Part shown: one piece after another, positions 1-40,560 of the stretch
How the letters are laid out: each line of letters opens with the position of its first letter
How positions within the stretch are numbered: the first letter of the stretch is position 1
Sequence record: QB031379.1
Strand: one strand, 5' to 3'
From: a phage
Length of the DNA stretch: 40,560 bases
Notes under the pieces: generated by a model
The model's database searches: none
The model's input: the letters and a program-made list of their open reading frames with translations, nothing else
Told to the model about the DNA's origin: nothing
Position numbers and translations under genes: made by a program

Positions 1-18
1 ATAGGTGAGTCGTATTAG
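1..18 (-). promoter_or_regulatory. Partial phage-RNAP promoter cut by the window boundary (phi1.6-like); revcomp reads CTAATACGACTCACCTAT
   Basis: T7-core match TAATACGACTCAC on - strand at the window edge; the downstream part would lie at the other end of the window if the record is circular. One extra C relative to the local consensus. Confidence 0.3.
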
Positions 19-95
19 CAATCCGGCCAGCAGTTGTCGTCAATGATAACGAAGGCAAACGTGGCAAAGATAGCAGCAGCAATTAGAAATAGCAT
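15..95 (-). CDS. Small hydrophobic peptide, 26 aa (MLFLIAAAIFATFAFVIIDDNCWPDC), at the gene 1.5 position
   Basis: Hand-translated; ATG at 93-95 (revcomp) preceded by GGAGG inside the phi1.5-like promoter; below the ORF-track size cutoff. Identity by position only. Confidence 0.3.
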   Translation of the reverse strand: MLFLIAAAIFATFAFVIIDDNCWPDC

Positions 96-102
96 GAGGT
101 AG

Positions 103-125
103 TTCCTCCATAGTGAGTCGTATAG
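103..125 (-). promoter_or_regulatory. Phage-RNAP promoter variant (phi1.5-like): CTATACGACTCACTATGGAGGAA
   Basis: Near-consensus T7-type core on - strand; GGAGG doubles as the RBS of the downstream small ORF. Confidence 0.5.
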
Positions 126-7011: not shown

Positions 7012-7470
7012 TTACTGTACTTGCCAGCGGCGACCGAACTCATCAATAGTGAAGCAGCCTTTCAGTGCCTCGGTGCGTGGGACTTCTTGGAAGCTACCGT
7101 GCAGACGTTCAGCTTTATAACCATCAATGCCTTTAGCGTACACTAAGCCAGCCGTGTGAGTCTGTGACTTATAGACCAGTACACAATCTTGCTCGAACTC
7201 ATTACACGCCAGACGTGCGACCGCTATTGCTTGAGCTTTGTTAGCACAGCGTACACGAACAGTCAGTTCCTCAGTTGGTGCACTTGCGATAGCCTCTCGA
7301 TAACAACCAGTCAAATCTGTAGACTCAACGCTACCGTATTCGAGCGGTGCATTACGCAGTGAGTTAACCATGTGACGATGACGACTCATATTGACTTCAT
7401 CGCAGAGGTTAGAGCGGAACGCTGATACCAGTACATAGAATACATTTGCAGGTTCGTTAGTGTAAATCAT
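7012..7470 (-). CDS. S-adenosyl-L-methionine hydrolase (T3-type gene 0.3 anti-restriction protein)
   Basis: 152 aa; MIYTNEPANVFYVLVSAFRSNLCDEVNMSRHRH...CFTIDEFGRRWQVQ matches T3 SAMase as I recall it; first gene after the host-promoter region. Confidence 0.8.
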   Translation of the reverse strand: MIYTNEPANVFYVLVSAFRSNLCDEVNMSRHRHMVNSLRNAPLEYGSVESTDLTGCYREAIASAPTEELTVRVRCANKAQAIAVARLACNEFEQDCVLVYKSQTHTAGLVYAKGIDGYKAERLHGSFQEVPRTEALKGCFTIDEFGRRWQVQ

Positions 7471-7493
7471 GATAGTGCCTCATTAGGTGTTAG

Positions 7494-7548
7494 TGATTAT
7501 CATAAAGAGCACGCATTGTTACTTAATGTGCGCCCTTGAGTTAATCGC
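7494..7548 (-). promoter_or_regulatory. RNase III processing hairpin (R0.3-like) in the early leader
   Basis: gattatcataaagagcacgcattgttacttaatgtgcgcccttgagttaatcgc; more diverged family member. Confidence 0.5.
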
Positions 7549-7723
7549 TATTGGCGTTATCACGGCTTAAACGCTAGTGCGTTCACGTCATCCCCGTAGT
7601 TCTTGACTACCTGTCCCGCAGTAAGGGAATTACACGACCATATTGTTAAAGAACTTTAAGTGCAGGTTTCGTTAGCACCGAGTCACTTTCAGTGTGTGAC
7701 CTCACAAGAACGTTATGTCGTAC

Positions 7724-7753
7724 ATCTTACATCTTGTTGTTGCTACTTGTCAA
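7724..7753 (-). promoter_or_regulatory. Host sigma70-type early promoter: -35 TTGACA, 18-nt spacer, -10 TAAGAT
   Basis: Read on the - strand; element arrangement matches the T7 A2 promoter as I recall it. Confidence 0.5.
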
Positions 7754-7819
7754 CTACTTTTGTTTCTCACCGTGACACCTCATGTTGTTTCAGAGGGCGA
7801 CCAGTTGTTGACGACTGCT

Positions 7820-7848
7820 ATACTACGTTATTGCTTTCGTTGAGTCAA
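7820..7848 (-). promoter_or_regulatory. Host sigma70-type early promoter: -35 TTGACT, 17-nt spacer, -10 TAGTAT
   Basis: Read on the - strand in the early leader. Confidence 0.5.
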
Positions 7849-7954
7849 CCACTTTCGTGTGTCTGGTTGATGACTACTTGAGACATTCCCGCCTCACCAG
7901 ATAACTCTAGGTCTTGTCTAGTGGTTGGTAGCGCTGTGTCTCTCAACGGTTGCT

Positions 7955-7983
7955 ATAGTCTCATAAGCCATTATTAATGTCAA
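7955..7983 (-). promoter_or_regulatory. Host sigma70-type early promoter: -35 TTGACA, 17-nt spacer, weak -10 GACTAT, AT-rich upstream
   Basis: Read on the - strand; the -10 is non-canonical, so this is tentative. Confidence 0.35.
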
Positions 7984-8070
7984 TACTTAATTTTAAGAAA
8001 CTCAAAGTCTCTCTAAGTGGTCTTATAGTCTCTTATAGTGGACATAAAGAGAGGATGACCAGTATTAGCT

Positions 8071-8094
8071 ATTCCTCAATAGTGAGTCGCATTA
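8071..8094 (-). promoter_or_regulatory. Phage-RNAP promoter (phiOL-like): TAATGCGACTCACTATTGAGGAA
   Basis: T7-type core with G at -13 and A at +2; position upstream of the host promoters matches T7 phiOL. Confidence 0.55.
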
Positions 8095-8274
8095 AAGGCT
8101 ATTGACCATCAGCCACCTTTAAGGCACTATAGGCACTCAGTCGATTCTACTTGTCCCTCTCATCACTCAGGGACTGCTAAACAGAGTGAGATAGTGATTT
8201 CCCTTTGTGACGAAGCCTATTGGTCACTGATAAACATAAGGCACTGACTGAAGGTTAACATAAGGATAAGCAGG

Positions 8275-8326
8275 CATAAGGTGATGACATAAGGTGTTGA
8301 CATAAGGTGATGACATAAGGTGATAA
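8275..8326. repeat. Four tandem 13-bp repeats (cataaggtgatga-type); the heptamer CATAAGG / CCTTATG recurs at least 10 times between 8236 and 8680
   Basis: Seen directly; flanks the inferred terminal repeat on both sides, analogous in position to the T7 CCTAAAG repeats near its genome ends. Confidence 0.8.
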
Positions 8327-8346
8327 CTCAAAGGTCACTTACAGAT

Positions 8347-8540
8347 AGGGACACAGAGAGGACTACATATAGTGGTCATAAGGTATCACTAAGCACCATA
8401 TCTAGTGGTTACACCTAGAGTTAACCCAATGTCTCACAAAAGGGTTGACTTCAGGTAAACCATGAGTTACCATAGAGGAAGGCTCTTTGGGTGGACTGAA
8501 GGAGGCCATAGGGGGGACTCGGTGTTTATGAACTATGAGA
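8347..8540 (-). repeat. Inferred terminal repeat region and concatemer junction (single collapsed copy); physical left end at about 8540 on the - strand
   Basis: Revcomp from 8540 reads TCTCATAGTTCATAAACACCGAGTCCCCCCTATGG, resembling the T3/T7 left ends; revcomp at 8336-8360 reads CTCTCTGTGTCCCT ATCTGTAAGTG, matching the T7 repeat boundary and CJ-like ATCTGT element. Boundaries approximate. Confidence 0.5.
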
Positions 8541-8770
8541 TACTCACTCAGATTTTTCTGTAGGATTCTTAAAGGGGTACATCAAGTCTCATAAGGTTAA
8601 CCACAGAGGCTCTATCATAAGGTTAGACTACGTGAGAGACCCTAAGAGACCCTGTAGACCATAGAGGGTACATAAGGGTTACTCTTAGAGTTGACTTCTT
8701 ACAGTGATTATAGGGAAGATGTATATCGACCATAATCACTAAGAGCGCGCACTAAGCGCCAATGAGTAGT

Positions 8771-8926
8771 CTAAGAAACACAAGTGAGTAGAGAACAAAG
8801 CAGAGTCTCCAGTTCGCCGATGTGTTCAGCACTAGATGCGAGGCCAATGGAAGCAGCAAGTACAACGAGAAATTTGTAGGTCACTCGATGCGTTGCCAGT
8901 GTCTTGAGCACGGATAGTAAGCGCAT
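8771..8926 (-). CDS. gp19.5-like small protein, 51 aa
   Basis: Hand-translated MRLLSVLKTLATHRVTYKFLVVLAASIGLASSAEHIGELETLLCSLLTCVS; RBS AAGGAGG; resembles my recollection of T7 gp19.5; last gene before the genome end. Confidence 0.6.
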   Translation of the reverse strand: MRLLSVLKTLATHRVTYKFLVVLAASIGLASSAEHIGELETLLCSLLTCVS

Positions 8927-9081
8927 AGAGCGTCCTCCTTGTTATACTTGATGGTTACACTGTTAGTAGGGATGTAATTACTATTACTATCATCCCTCAC
9001 TGTAAGGGTCTCTAAGAGTAGTCACTAAGTATGCACTTTGCATATGCAGTCTATAAGTGTCTTTAAGTTGTCTTAGGGTGC

Positions 9082-9105
9082 CCTTCCCAATAGTGAGTCG
9101 TATTA
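9082..9105 (-). promoter_or_regulatory. Phage-RNAP promoter (phiOR-like): TAATACGACTCACTATTGGGAAGG
   Basis: Full consensus between the terminase gene and the gene 19.5 ORF. Confidence 0.8.
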
Positions 9106-9192
9106 ATTTCTTCATGTATATCAGTAAGTTACTTAATGGTAACGTAGCGGTACTAAGTGCTTACCTATGCACCTTTCCCGCATACTTATCTA

Positions 9193-10950
9193 TTACCACT
9201 CAATGAAGCAGCTAGAGTCTCCATCGTCCTCATAGTAGATGTCCACGCCACCAACATCGTAGCTATGGATAGCATCACCACCAATGGTCTGTTTCTCCAT
9301 GTGATGTTCAAGGAACTCAAGGGTCATCTCTTCTTCACCGATACGGCTGTCCACAAGCATCCCCTCGCGTAGCCATTCGATACCCAATGCGATAGCATCA
9401 AGTCGGTCATCGTGTGCCACAGCGCCTCGCTCACGAGTCATACGGGTCATCTGATAGAACGCACTGTAGCGAACATCATGTTTCCCATCAAGGTCACGAG
9501 CAGTCTGGTAGTCCTCACGGATAACCTCATCACGAATGACCAGCTTGTGTGCACCCATCAACGGTTCGATAGTATCGCAGATTCGCATCTCCTTCATGCC
9601 CTTAGCACGGATTTCCTCTAAGGCACACTTATGGTTCTTCAGGAGAATCGGAGAGAAAATCTTACCGAACATACCATCACCGAAGTTGGACTCATGGACG
9701 ACTGTCTGTACCTTCCACTGCTTGGCCTTCTTAGCGAGCTTCTCTAAGGTAGCATCATCGTAGCCACCACGGAACCCTCCGACTTCCATCAGGTAGATGT
9801 AACCGTTCAGTGAGTAGAGGACTGCATACCCGGTCTCATCCTTACCACGACCACTTGGGTCAATGACCAGAATCTTAGACTGATACTCAGCGGTGCGAGA
9901 AGAGCACGTATGGAACGCATGGATGTCATCACCCTTCAGACCAACGTTAGGGAGTTCCTCATTGCGGTTCTGACGGTTCGGCAACCACTGGTAAGACAAT
10001 GGGGCACGTTCAGGGTCCACAGCGCACACGATAGCATCACGGAGTCGTAGCGGGTACTTCTCGGCATCACTAAGGTTCGGGTTAAGCATGAACTGAAGTG
10101 TGTAGCCAGCTTTACCATATTCGAGTTCACGTTCACGGAGGTCATCCATATCGAATCGAACAGGGTCAGTAGGTTGACCACGGAGTAACTCGAAGCCATC
10201 ATCATACTCTTGCTTAAGCATAGGAGCCAGTCGGTCGCCATAGTAGAGAGCCTCAGCGTCATTACGTGGATACTGTGCTGGCCAGATTACTGTGCTGTAC
10301 CCTTTGTTGTCCTCAAGTTCCTTGTAGAGAGTCATCTCGGTTTGAGGTGTCCCAAGGTAGATAACACGAGAGGTAGGCAGTGGCTTAAGTAATGCAGCAA
10401 ACTCAGTTACCAACGTCCAGAGCTTCTCACGGGCAGAACTCGTAGAGCTATTACCGGGAACCTCAACGTCATCTGCGATAATGATGTCAGCACGACTACC
10501 AGTCAACTGACCAGTGATACCCACAGACTTCACAGAAGGTGAGTGGTCGGGTTTCGCCAAGCCAACGTCGAAGCTAATCACGGAGTCACGCTGTCCCGGT
10601 CGAGGTTTCAACTCAGAGAGGAACGGAAGGAGGTCGATGATGTTCTTGATGAAGATGGAGTTAGCATCAGCACGTTCCTTAGAGGCAGACACGATGAGCA
10701 CCTTGAGTTGAGGGTCACGCCATAAGACCCACACAACGAATGCACAGGTGATAAATGACTTGCCGATACCACGGAACGCCTGAAGGATAAACTTCTTGTG
10801 GTCGCCGTTAGCGAGTGTACGTGCCATATCAATCTGACACTTGGTTGGTTTAGGTAAGTTCAGAGCCTTCCATAAGACGAACAGGAAGGCCACGAAGTCA
10901 CCCTTAAGTTGCGCCACGATGAGCGCATTCTTGTTTGCTTGAGTAGACAT
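9193..10950 (-). CDS. Terminase large subunit / DNA maturase B (T7 gene 19 homolog)
   Basis: 585 aa; colinear with T7 gp19 as I recall it; RBS AGGAGG upstream of the ATG at 10950. Confidence 0.95.
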
Positions 10951-12581: not shown

Positions 12582-14513
12582 TTATTGGTTTTGGACTAAG
12601 ATTCGCGTAGGGACTGAACGGTTGTCTTGGTCGTTACGGAAAGTTCGCCCGTTGTTAGAGATTGTGAACTTAAGCCAACCACCATCAGATGAGATGAAGT
12701 AAGCCGCATTGTCACCAATAGGCACAGCGTTCCAGCGTCCGTTAGTCTGAATCCAGATGGTTCTCCAACGAACATCCTGTGAGAGACCTACGGAAACACC
12801 ACCACCAGCAGAGCCGCTCCAGACCTCAGCCCACCCAGCGTTCTTATTGACGTATCGACCATCAGCTTGCGCTTGAGTTAACCGTCCATTGACTAGGTTG
12901 TTTACTTCGCTTTTATTGTAGGCATGTTCTCCAAGGCGTTTGTTGACCCAACCGTCGATGTAAGAATCATACTTCTTGATGTATAAGTTACCATCTGGCG
13001 GGATGTTCCACCCGGAGCTAGATGATAGAGTACCATTCGAGTCAAAAGAATATTCCCTGTTAGCTGCCTGACCAAAGTTGAATCGCCAAGCCCCAGCACC
13101 GGGGTCTTTGTAGAGATAACCATCAGTGTAGGAATCGCTGGTTTTCATTTGAATATGCCGCCGAGCAGAGTTAATCATCATCAGGTTCTGTGAGCGAGTC
13201 TGTAAAACCCCCCTTGCGTCGATTGAACCATCTGCACTAAAGTTAGTCTTAGTGGTAAGCGAGCCATTAATTTGCAGGTGTGCGTCTTGAGAATCAGCCC
13301 CACCAAACTGCAAGTACATCCCATACCCTTTACCATAATTAGACCCGAACTCCAGCACGTTACCACGTCCAGAATCATTACCCCAAACAAAGATGTCCCA
13401 AGCGCGCTCTTTGTGGTCTCTGTTGCGAAGGCGTAGCGTGTTATCATTTAGGAACGCTGTGTTTGGTTGTACCCCAGCATGGATAGAATCCTTAGCAAGC
13501 ATTGTATTCCCATTCACGCCACCCTTGAAGTTAATATCCTTGCCGTTACTCCCAATGCTCTCAATGGTTCCCGCTAGGTCATTCATATTACCCAACTTGT
13601 CGGCCTCAGACTTAGCACGGTCAGCCTCACTCTTAGAGCGGTTTGCCTCAGTGTTGGCTCGGTCAGCATGTCCCTTAGCGGTAGCAACGTGTGCAGCAGC
13701 TTTGGCAACCTCAGCAGCAGCCTTAGTCACTTCTCCGGCAGCACGATTGGCCTCATCACTGGCACGATTGGCCTCAGAGTTAGAACGGTCAGCTTGCTTC
13801 TTGGCCTCAGCGACACTTGCGGTCATACTATCAGCATAACCTTTAGCTCGGTTAGCCTCAGAGTTGGAACGGTCAGCTTGCTTCTTGGACTCAACCGCCT
13901 GTGCCGTAGAGACGCCTGCCTGTTGGGTTGAGCGGTCAGCTTCACGTTTTGCACGGTCAGCTTCATCTCGCGATCGGTTAGCCTCAGTGTTAGAGCGGTT
14001 AGCGTGTTCATTGGCCTTGTTAACAGCGTTCCAAGCAGACGACTCGCGCTCTTTTACTTGCTTCAGAGGGACAGCATCGTAGTCACTGGTAGCGAACGCT
14101 AGGTTCACAATCTTACGACCACGGGCATCCAAGTGACCATCATTGTTGACACCAATGGTATCCGCAGTTAGGTCTCGTGCCTCTTCAGCTACGTGCAGCG
14201 TCTGAATCTGTGAGATGTTAAGGTCATACGCACGAAGGATTGAGCCATCAGCAAAGTCAACCAGACGGTCGGTTGCAGAAGTGAATCGACGAATCTCAAT
14301 CATCTGATAACCATCGGCAGCAGTCCACGCACGGGAGGTTGTGATTTGGGTCTTAGTGGTAAAGCGATAGTCCTGATTGAGAACCAACTCTTTACGGTCT
14401 TTCCCGATGAGTGTCACTTGGACGAACTTACGTGCTAAATACTCAAAGGTAATCGTGAAGTTCACGGCACCGTTCAGTGGGTAAGTACGTACAGTGGAAA
14501 TTTTGTTAGCCAT
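12582..14513 (-). CDS. Tail fiber protein (T7 gene 17 homolog) with expanded repeat-rich shaft
   Basis: 643 aa (T7 about 553); the N-terminal attachment region and the C-terminal tip (...WSGSAGGGVSV...SSDGGWL...) resemble T7 gp17; middle contains ADRSNSEANRA-type repeats. Confidence 0.9.
   Translation of the reverse strand: MANKISTVRTYPLNGAVNFTITFEYLARKFVQVTLIGKDRKELVLNQDYRFTTKTQITTSRAWTAADGYQMIEIRRFTSATDRLVDFADGSILRAYDLNISQIQTLHVAEEARDLTADTIGVNNDGHLDARGRKIVNLAFATSDYDAVPLKQVKERESSAWNAVNKANEHANRSNTEANRSRDEADRAKREADRSTQQAGVSTAQAVESKKQADRSNSEANRAKGYADSMTASVAEAKKQADRSNSEANRASDEANRAAGEVTKAAAEVAKAAAHVATAKGHADRANTEANRSKSEADRAKSEADKLGNMNDLAGTIESIGSNGKDINFKGGVNGNTMLAKDSIHAGVQPNTAFLNDNTLRLRNRDHKERAWDIFVWGNDSGRGNVLEFGSNYGKGYGMYLQFGGADSQDAHLQINGSLTTKTNFSADGSIDARGVLQTRSQNLMMINSARRHIQMKTSDSYTDGYLYKDPGAGAWRFNFGQAANREYSFDSNGTLSSSSGWNIPPDGNLYIKKYDSYIDGWVNKRLGEHAYNKSEVNNLVNGRLTQAQADGRYVNKNAGWAEVWSGSAGGGVSVGLSQDVRWRTIWIQTNGRWNAVPIGDNAAYFISSDGGWLKFTISNNGRTFRNDQDNRSVPTRILVQNQ
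13768..13894. repeat. Two copies of a roughly 45-bp direct repeat (about 90 percent identical, about 80 bp apart) inside the tail-fiber gene
   Basis: attggcctcagagttagaacggtcagcttgcttcttggcctcagc and gttagcctcagagttggaacggtcagcttgcttcttggactcaac; encode the repeated KKQADRSNSEANRA shaft motif. Confidence 0.7.
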
Positions 14514-38921: not shown

Positions 38922-39626
38922 TTAGAAGTCACCATCTTCGTCTTCCTCGTCCTCTTCTTCTGATTCTTCGTTCCAACCAGAATCATTTTGAGGACGTTGA
39001 CGGGTTTGTGCTTCATCAGCTTCGTAGCCATCTTCTTCGACTTCATCACCCCAATCGTCATCACCACCACCGAACTCGACCAGCTTAATCAGCATCACGG
39101 AATCCAGTTGCAGCTTAACGGAAGCACCTGCCACAGCAGACCAACCGTAAGGGAACAGAGTGTATTTAATCTTCAGTTCAGAGCCACCAGAGATAGCTGG
39201 ACGCTCACCACGGATGCGCTTACCTTTGGAGTCCACGATAGCCAAGTCGATTGGTTTGTTCTCACCAGTCTTCTTGTCAGTGAACGAGCCGTAGCACTTG
39301 AAGTTGAACGTAGTGGTTCCATCTTCGTTATCCATGAAAGGCATGTCGCCAACATATGGCTTCAGCGGTTTCTTACCCTTGACAACTTTCGGCGGGTTAG
39401 CTTCGTACTCTTCGAGTCGAGCAGCGTAGTCCGTCTCATGGGCTTCGACAATCTCGTCAATCATCTTCTGACAGCGAGGGTCGTCGTTGGGTACAGTCAG
39501 CGATACTTTGTAGACACCACGTTCGTTCTTGAAGTCACCACTACCGAAGTCCGGCTTTGCCAGATAGCAGTAAGGTTCAGCAACACCACGAGCGGAAGTG
39601 AATACTTTACGTTTTGCGAATGCCAT
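38922..39626 (-). CDS. Single-stranded DNA-binding protein (T7 gene 2.5 homolog)
   Basis: 234 aa; acidic C-terminal tail ...EEDEEDEDGDF ending in Phe as in T7 gp2.5. Confidence 0.95.
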   Translation of the reverse strand: MAFAKRKVFTSARGVAEPYCYLAKPDFGSGDFKNERGVYKVSLTVPNDDPRCQKMIDEIVEAHETDYAARLEEYEANPPKVVKGKKPLKPYVGDMPFMDNEDGTTTFNFKCYGSFTDKKTGENKPIDLAIVDSKGKRIRGERPAISGGSELKIKYTLFPYGWSAVAGASVKLQLDSVMLIKLVEFGGGDDDWGDEVEEDGYEADEAQTRQRPQNDSGWNEESEEEDEEDEDGDF

Positions 39627-39673
39627 AATGTTTCTCCTTTAGTTTCTGAAAGTTAAAAGTGGGAAACGCTGTG

Positions 39674-39697
39674 TCTCCCATTAGTGAGTCCTATTAA
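39674..39697 (-). promoter_or_regulatory. Phage-RNAP promoter (phi2.5-like): TAATAGGACTCACTAATGGGAGAC
   Basis: Core with G at -12, upstream of the SSB gene. Confidence 0.65.
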
Positions 39698-39885
39698 ACC
39701 TTACGGTCTGGACGGATGCGTGTTACAGCGAAGCCAGCAGGGACGTATTGCCACTCAGCTAACTCATTGGCCTCTTCAAGAGACGTAGCGAACACAGGTA
39801 CTTCGAACGATTGGCCTTGGCCTTCTACCGTAGCGAAGAACTTCTTGTCACCGTTTACCAGTGACCCTTTATTCAGAGTGCTCAT
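39694..39885 (-). CDS. gp2-like inhibitor of host RNA polymerase
   Basis: 63 aa; ...[46 protein letters not shown] matches T7 gp2 as I recall it. Confidence 0.85.
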
Positions 39886-39972: not shown

Positions 39973-40284
39973 TTAAGCATGGCATTTACCTTTATGTTTC
40001 TCGTACAGTTCACCGTAGAACCCAGCTTTCGCCATGTCCTTCTCTAAGAATGCCAGTTCGGATTTCTTACCAGCACGGAGGCGATACTTAAGGATGTTCC
40101 CTAAGCAGTACCCTTTGAACTGTTCGCGGGTCATCGACCGGGCAATCACTTCGATAGCCTCAATGTCGTCAAACAACATATAGTGGCTCGGAGTCCGAAC
40201 ACCCTCTATATCTTGTGGTTTAGCTACAGGTTCACAGGTGTGAGGGTAGCGGTCATCATTCTCTAAACATGCCATGCAGACCAT
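39973..40284 (-). CDS. Short gp1.7-like protein (in T7 a nucleotide kinase), 103 aa
   Basis: ...CLENDDRYPHTC... and ...PSHYMLFDDIEAIEVIARSMT...KGYCLGNILKYRLRAGKKSELAFLEKD... match the ends of T7 gp1.7 (196 aa as I recall) with the middle absent. Confidence 0.7.
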   Translation of the reverse strand: MVCMACLENDDRYPHTCEPVAKPQDIEGVRTPSHYMLFDDIEAIEVIARSMTREQFKGYCLGNILKYRLRAGKKSELAFLEKDMAKAGFYGELYEKHKGKCHA

Positions 40285-40547
40285 TAGAACACCTCCTTGA
40301 TACGTGCAATTACCAGACGGACTTTAGGAAAACGGGTGACGAGAACCGGAATGAAAGGCCGGGAGCCAGTGGTCGCTTCTTTATATAAGCCAGTGGTGAT
40401 TACAGCGTGAACACGAGGTGCTAACTCAATGGTCGAGCCAAGCACTTTAGGGATGACTGCGTGTTTCTCAGAGGCCAGAACAGTAGAGCGGTCAGCGCCA
40501 CGCGCAGAGAAGATGCCATTAGATTTGTTGAAGTGAAGTCTTAACAT
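40284..40547 (-). CDS. Hypothetical protein at the gene 1.6 position, 87 aa
   Basis: ORF track; ATG at 40545-40547 with GGAGG 7 nt upstream; stop overlaps the gene 1.7 ATG (TAATG). Confidence 0.55.
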   Translation of the reverse strand: MLRLHFNKSNGIFSARGADRSTVLASEKHAVIPKVLGSTIELAPRVHAVITTGLYKEATTGSRPFIPVLVTRFPKVRLVIARIKEVF

Positions 40548-40560
40548 AGTTGTGTCCTCC

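Follow-up and report, generated by a model that had tools for sequence, protein, structure and literature searches.

Introduction

In T7 and T3, replicated genomes recombine through their terminal repeats into head-to-tail concatemers, in which each junction has a single repeat. Formation of the T7 right end is aided both by transcription that starts at phiOR and crosses the junction and by pausing of the polymerase at the junction motif (ATCTGTT). The T7 record starts with tctcacagtg…cccccataggggg, and its repeat ends with ...GTGTCCCT (…gtgtccct) at base 160, followed by ATCTGTTACAG (atctgttacag). The T3 record starts with tctcatagttcaagaaccc…ccccccccatag, and its 231-bp repeat ends with ...GTGTCCCT (…gtgtccct) at base 231, followed by ATCTGTTAG (atctgttag). 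Phages of the T7/T3 type have direct terminal repeats, show no circular permutation and use the repeats to form concatemers, and read-start pile-ups have been validated for the fixed ends of T3 and T7-like phages (PMC3896407). The class II motif of T7 is described as seven strictly conserved bases, and the signal for T7 RNA polymerase is reportedly lost when any of them is changed. Primer walking off virion DNA located the ends of Kvp1, and a T3-like 0.3 SAMase was described in the group to which Kvp1 belongs (Kvp1 paper).

Here we analysed a stretch of phage DNA of 40,560 bp, referred to as the window, in which a first-pass annotation had placed the genome ends and the concatemer junction. 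The feature is the already known T7-type terminal repeat and concatemer junction, and is a point of curation, not a discovery. We are highly confident that the record is a whole Berlinvirus-type genome with T7-type ends, whose repeats have been collapsed and which has been permuted and reverse-complemented.

Results

The window is a complete T7/T3-like phage genome of the Berlinvirus type. A 24-kb stretch of it is 97.3% identical to Enterobacter phage PZJ0206, the closest relative in the phage collection searched, and the same 24 kb is 92-94% identical to 285P and PYPS50 (285P at 94%). PZJ0206 and Kvp1 are both classified as Berlinvirus (Studiervirinae, T7 group), and the window, which is highly similar in nucleotide sequence to recognised members and collinear with them, belongs to the same genus. 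All 12 phage-type promoter sites (consensus TAATACGACTCACTATTGGGA) are on the minus strand, which also carries every gene examined. The record is therefore the reverse complement of the conventional T7 map, as the first-pass annotation had stated.

Around the junction, genes and promoters follow the order of the T7 map: 19, phiOR, 19.5, repeat, phiOL, 0.3. Gene 19 (9193..10950, minus strand) encodes a T7-type large terminase subunit (phrog_38 terminase large subunit, E=1.5e-131), which we expect to make the cuts at these ends. Gene 19.5 comes last on the conventional map and lies at 8771..8926 on the minus strand; its product is 94% identical to Kvp1 gp19.5 and matches phrog_2193. The early genes that follow the left end begin with gene 0.3 (7012..7470, minus strand), a member of the T3-type SAM hydrolase family (phrog_2226, E=7e-52). 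In conventional coordinates the record break falls at 8540/8541, with 1071 as the start of gene 0.3 and 40,330 as the end of gene 19.5. Within a coding region at 13720-14013 (plus-strand coordinates) there are three degenerate direct copies of an 84-nt unit with 61-71% identity, which suggests an internally repetitive protein, unrelated to the terminal repeat.

When the two ends of the window are joined, the resulting 420 nt are contiguous in 48 relatives, with 99% identity in nasanit, and the earlier claim of circular permutation is confirmed. The base-level join is identical in nasanit and FE44, and no base has been lost or duplicated at the break. The break cuts a promoter-like site that is the same in nasanit and FE44; its upstream part, TAATACGACTCACCTAT, occupies window 1..17 and its downstream part, GGAGGAC, occupies window 40554..40560, both on the minus strand. 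Just before the break, at the position of T7 gene 1.5, is a 26-aa ORF (MLFLIAAAIFATFAFVIIDDNCWPDC; 15..95, minus strand). Gene 1.6 follows at 40284..40547 (minus strand), with 55% identity to T7 gp1.6 and a match to phrog_1777. In the T7 map, gene 1.5 is located between phi1.5 and phi1.6. The 1.5/1.6 signals had been described as split by the window boundary, and the break is indeed inside the promoter-like site between the 26-aa ORF and 1.6. FE44 has a homologous 81-nt ORF annotated as similar to Kvp1_gp10, and a phage-specific promoter annotated at the boundary site, whose function its annotators question because the site is so close to gene 1.6. Compared with the phage consensus, the boundary site has one extra C (CGACTCACCTATGGAGGA, against CGACTCACTATGGAGGA at 120..103), which is conserved in nasanit and FE44. 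We considered whether the extra C (CGACTCACCTAT compared with CGACTCACTAT) was an artefact of the join, and rejected this because nasanit and FE44 are identical; the extra base is real.

On the minus strand, TCTCATAGTTCATAAACACCGAGTCCCCCCTATGG begins at 8540 and CTCTCTGTGTCCCTATCTGTAAGTG occupies 8360..8336. Both strings had been quoted earlier as marks of the genome ends, and each is found at the position given for it and occurs once in the window. TCTCATAGTT, CTCTCTGTGTCCCT and GTGTCCCTATCTGT also have one occurrence each in the 40,560 bp. The minus strand from 8540 to 8347 aligns from the first to the last base with the 194-bp repeats of BA14 (annotated at 1-194 and 39623-39816) and Kvp1. 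This end-to-end alignment defines a terminal repeat of 194 bp at 8347..8540 (minus strand), present as a single, collapsed copy. Predicted genome position 1 is window position 8540 on the minus strand, and the repeat ends with ...CTCTCTGTGTCCCT at 8347. The repeat is 98.5% identical to that of D226, 97.5% to that of PZJ0206, 89% to that of Kvp1 and 82% to that of BA14, with several 1-nt indels relative to BA14 and Kvp1.

A window-wide repeat search found no second copy of the repeat. The window has the right-end unique flank followed by a single repeat and then the left-end unique flank, an arrangement typical of a concatemer junction or a collapsed assembly. The sequence upstream of 8540 (…CCCTTTAAGAATCCTACAGAAAAATCTGAGTGAGTA) corresponds to that before the right-hand repeat of BA14 and Kvp1, and the sequence downstream of 8347 (ATCTGTAAGTGACCT…) to that after their left-hand repeat. 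The unique sequence before the left-end cut site, GTACCCCTTTAAGAATCCTACAGAAAAATCTGAGTGAGTA (8541..8580, minus strand), aligns with the right-end flanks of BA14 and Kvp1 and would precede the right-hand repeat copy in the virion. The repeat and both unique flanks are thus homologous to the experimentally determined ends of Kvp1. The distance from gene 19.5 to the repeat is exactly 230 bp (8770..8541), compared with 228 bp in Kvp1, so that the spacing of about 230 bp given by the first-pass annotation is accurate and the 19.5 it named is a real gene. Its placement of the linear genome start near 8540 on the minus strand, with a repeat of about 8347..8540 present once, also agrees with the homologous ends of BA14 and Kvp1, which coincide with these positions. 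It had put the virion DNA at about 40.75 kb; adding the 194-bp repeat to the 40,560 bp predicts a molecule of 40,754 bp with 194-bp direct repeats, the second copy of which would lie at 40,561-40,754.

Megablast of 8100-8800 gave E=0 with 85-93% identity to about 100 phage records, and the similarity is therefore far beyond chance. That short strings match the T7 and T3 ends merely by chance is refuted by full-length alignments with E-values of 0 to 1e-90 and by the conservation of both flanks, and we assign this explanation practically no probability.

The sequences at the predicted cuts (marked by a caret) are conserved beyond the genus. The left-end context is AAAAATCTGAGTGAGTA^TCTCATAG in the window, AAAAATCTGAGTGACTA^TCTCACAG in T7, AAAAATCTGAATGGGTA^TCTCATAG in T3 and AAAAATCTGAGTGGGTA^TCTCATAG in BA14. 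The pattern AAAAATCTGA.TG..TA^TCTCA is common to T7, T3, BA14, Kvp1 and the window, and the window has the form ...TCTCA(C/T)AG. The first-pass annotation had likened the string from 8540 to the left ends of T3 and T7, and the T3 and T7 strings that it quoted match the database records. At the right end, GTGTCCCT^ATCTGT is shared by the window, T7, T3, BA14 and Kvp1. The boundary 15-mer TGTGTCCCTATCTGT was also found in IMG/VR contigs of the T7, T3, Klebsiella-phage and Berlinvirus types.

The two predicted cut sites resemble each other. On the minus strand, 8551..8533 reads CTGAGTGAGTA^TCTCATAG and 8356..8338 reads CTGTGTCCCT^ATCTGTAAG, with 12 of 19 bases identical; CTG.GT...TATCT is common to both, and the cuts are offset by 1 nt in that register. 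The cut sites of T7 likewise resemble each other (CTGAGTGACTATCT and CTGTGTCCCTATCT). The resemblance could reflect a common recognition element of the terminase. A 27-mer, CTCATAGTCCCCTGTGTCCCTATCTGT, was found in 36 IMG/VR contigs (loci L011, L023, L025, L033, L083, L097, L098 and about 29 others) and was considered as a mini-repeat of about 20 bp with both end motifs. It was rejected as belonging to an unrelated phage group. The sequence around the 27-mer in these contigs is AT-rich and coding-like on the opposite strand, and has no T7-like flank; the reverse complement of the motif, AGGGACACAGGGGACTATGAG, resembles a ribosome-binding site followed by ATG. The match appears to be coincidental.

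The deposited ends of relatives fall at the same positions. With the 701-bp query, the matches of Kvp1, BA14, FE44, PcCB251, LPST144 and others stop at query 453-455, which corresponds to window 8346-8348, and the JSS1 record begins at query 261, which corresponds to window 8540. When only the repeat was used as query, the first base of at least 12 distinct phage records corresponded to 8540 (±1), and a terminal repeat is annotated there in several of them. BA14 annotates a 'concatemeric junction' at 193-200. The deposited ends of Kvp1 are 1 nt inward at each end compared with BA14, T7 and T3, and the predicted ends are therefore given as ±1 nt.

The junction could be right while the actual cuts lie a few bases or more away from 8540 and 8347, and the lengths of the repeat and the virion DNA would then be slightly off 194 and 40,754 bp. 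The 1-nt shift of both Kvp1 ends from the BA14/T7/T3 convention would agree with such a displacement, as would the annotated repeat lengths of 190 to 202 bp in relatives, a range that is due to indels. However, the bases beside each cut are identical to those of BA14 and nearly identical to those of T7 and T3, and in the one close relative with experimentally anchored ends the difference is only 1 nt. We therefore consider such a displacement improbable and keep 8540 and 8347 as the predicted ends.

About as many records as start at the base corresponding to 8540 hold the junction internally, including that of the closest relative, PZJ0206, which indicates that collapsed and permuted deposits are common in the genus. 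Like the window, PZJ0206, S523, P151, P694, ErnstBeyeler and others contain the junction, with its one repeat copy, at an arbitrary internal coordinate, and each is opened at a different point. Permuted single-repeat deposits include MT625440 (PZJ0206), MH031343 (S523), PP083182 (P151), KP090454 (P694), MZ501064, OQ818670 and others. Several of the permuted relatives annotate a 'hypothetical protein' over the non-coding repeat, and in BA14 a CDS of 'unknown product' extends into the right repeat.

A single repeat might also reflect a truly circular genome, or one that is packaged by headful and circularly permuted, instead of a collapsed linear assembly, and the record ends do join cleanly into a circle. 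This explanation is very hard to reconcile with the fixed ends and exact direct repeats of close relatives, which were determined experimentally in Kvp1 and have been reported from read pile-ups for T3 and T7-like phages (PMC3896407). The terminase is of the T7 type and both cut-site sequences are conserved. Many records of relatives, moreover, are permuted at arbitrary points, as assembly produces. A collapsed assembly of a linear genome is by far the better explanation, and we give a circular or headful-packaged genome almost no credence.

Short repeated elements and promoters flank the repeat. Six CCTTATG heptamers are in the left-end unique DNA (8235..8320, minus strand), four of them with a 13-bp period, and the heptamer search found three more in a right-end array between 19.5 and the repeat (8590..8677, minus strand). 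Ten of the 15 copies of CCTTATG in the window are in 8235-8677, all ten on the minus strand. The expected count for the whole window is 3.4, and none of 100 shuffles reached 15. The counterparts of this array in T7 and T3 are CCTAAAG arrays at the same place. A phage RNA-polymerase promoter, TAATACGACTCACTATTGGGAAG (9083..9105, minus strand), is upstream of 19.5 and faces the junction, and is the counterpart of phiOR, which is 157 bp upstream of 19.5 in BA14 and at 39229 in T7. The counterpart of phiOL is TAATGCGACTCACTATTGAGGAA at 8072..8094 (minus strand), which starts at conventional position 447; phiOL is annotated at 353 in BA14, 405 in T7 and 366 in T3.

Within the repeat, at 8445-8473 on the plus strand, there is a sigma-70-like sequence (TTGACT-17-TACCAT) that is a weak match to the consensus and would point leftward on the conventional map. 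It is comparable to the leftward E. coli promoter A0 annotated inside the T3 repeat (126-150). A sigma-70 scan of 7400-9200 found four sites, with 3.9 expected from shuffles; this is no excess, and host promoters therefore cannot be called from the consensus alone. No terminator-like sites were found in the scan of 7400-9200. A hairpin or inverted repeat near the junction might serve as an intermediate of processing, but a search for such structures gave only weak, widely spaced pairs of 10-14 nt that are 79-90% complementary.

The first left-end unique bases after the repeat are ATCTGTA (8340..8346, minus strand), at the position of the class II motif of the T7 concatemer junction (CJ). The sequence at 8336-8360 had been said to match the T7 repeat boundary and the CJ pause element. 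The match to the boundary holds, but at the pause element ATCTGTA agrees with ATCTGTT at only six of seven positions. Since any change in the motif is reported to abolish the signal for T7 RNA polymerase, the term 'CJ pause element' is overstated. At a class II signal, the polymerase of the phage would pause or terminate 6-8 nt beyond the motif. Such a signal has the strictly conserved ATCTGTT on the non-template strand, and is preceded by A, C or T; the window has an allowed T in front (CCCT^ATCTGT), but its ATCTGTA departs from the defining seven bases and may be regarded as a putative pause site only. The window motif is like the T7 CJ signal in its position, its strand, its first six bases ATCTGT and its preceding T. 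It is unlike the class II signals of T7 RNA polymerase (CJ, PTH, VSV) in reading ATCTGTA and having no U-run after it, and its cognate polymerase is not that of T7.

In a sample of 120 IMG/VR loci with the boundary 15-mer, Berlinvirus-type flanks read ATCTGTA(A) (loci L024, L027, L030, L047, L048, L067, L077, L090, L095 and L121), whereas T7-, T3- and Klebsiella-phage-type flanks read ATCTGTT. Judging from these sequences, ATCTGTA is a lineage-wide variant in all sampled Berlinvirus-type sequences and not an error of the window record. Tentatively, either Berlinvirus polymerases may have a shifted or relaxed class II specificity, or GTGTCCCT^ATCTGT may be conserved for recognition by the terminase and not for pausing; we think it somewhat doubtful that this pair of explanations is correct. 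If terminase recognition is the true reading, the generality of the transcription-coupled model of right-end formation would be questioned. Whether the phage polymerase is still made to pause by the ATCTGTA of this lineage is the one biological question that the window raises.

Avoidance of the pause motif on one strand was also considered. Sense and antisense counts in the window are 0 and 7 for ATCTGTT, 1 (at the junction) and 4 for ATCTGTA, and 3 and 20 for ATCTGT. The counts were compared with those of k-mers of the same composition and with a third-order Markov model. On the sense strand 1.2-1.5 copies are expected, and 35% of 7-mers of the same composition also have zero sense copies. 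The strand ratio of the ATCTGT hexamer ranks 0.10 in the window and 0.04 in T7. Strand avoidance was rejected, as the counts are within compositional expectation.

Discussion

Our data indicate that the window carries the ends of a T7-type genome in collapsed form. We infer the physical ends, the second repeat copy, the exact cut positions (±1 nt) and the mechanism from sequence comparison. Two points may be held against the main reading: the identity of the repeat to experimentally anchored repeats is only 82-89%, and the junction motif differs at the seventh base.

The packaged DNA would be linear and non-permuted, with window 8540 (minus strand) as its first base (5'-TCTCATAGTT...). From there it would continue along the early genes and over the record boundary to 19, 19.5 and the unique base 8541, and would end with a second copy of 8540..8347, terminating in ...GTGTCCCT. 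On the model of T7 and T3, the arrangement of 8236-8770 would be that of a concatemer with one repeat per junction. The gp18/gp19 terminase would cut at the two conserved sites, and the repeat would be duplicated during processing to give two copies per virion. The two identical terminal repeats having collapsed to one copy, the assembler closed a circle; the record would then have been written as the reverse complement and linearised within the phi1.6 promoter-like site.

For curation, the record should be re-oriented to start at 8540 (minus strand) and extended at the right end by the 194-bp repeat to 40,754 bp, and the repeat region should be annotated as non-coding. Correct ends matter for comparisons of genome length and taxonomy, for phage engineering and rebooting, and for inference of packaging strategy. 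The understanding of T7-type packaging is unchanged by the window.

Among described systems, T7 and T3 are like the window in having a left end TCTCA(C/T)AGT preceded by AAAAATCTGA.TG..TA, a right end of GTGTCCCT followed by ATCTGT, heptamer arrays flanking the repeat, and the order phiOR, 19.5, repeat, phiOL. They are unlike it in the length of the repeat (160 bp in T7 and 231 bp in T3) and its interior sequence, in the heptamer (CCTAAAG, where the window has CCTTATG) and in the seventh base of the junction motif (T, where the window has A). BA14 (EU734171) and Kvp1 (FJ194439) differ from the window in that their records are linear with both repeat copies, whereas the window has one copy and is permuted and reverse-complemented. 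Like the window, both have a 194-bp repeat with TCTCATAGTTCATA as its first bases and CTCTCTGTGTCCCT as its last, …AAAAATCTGAGTG.GTA before the repeat and ATCTGTAA after it, 19.5 about 230 bp before the repeat, phiOR and phiOL on either side, and flanking CCTTATG heptamers.
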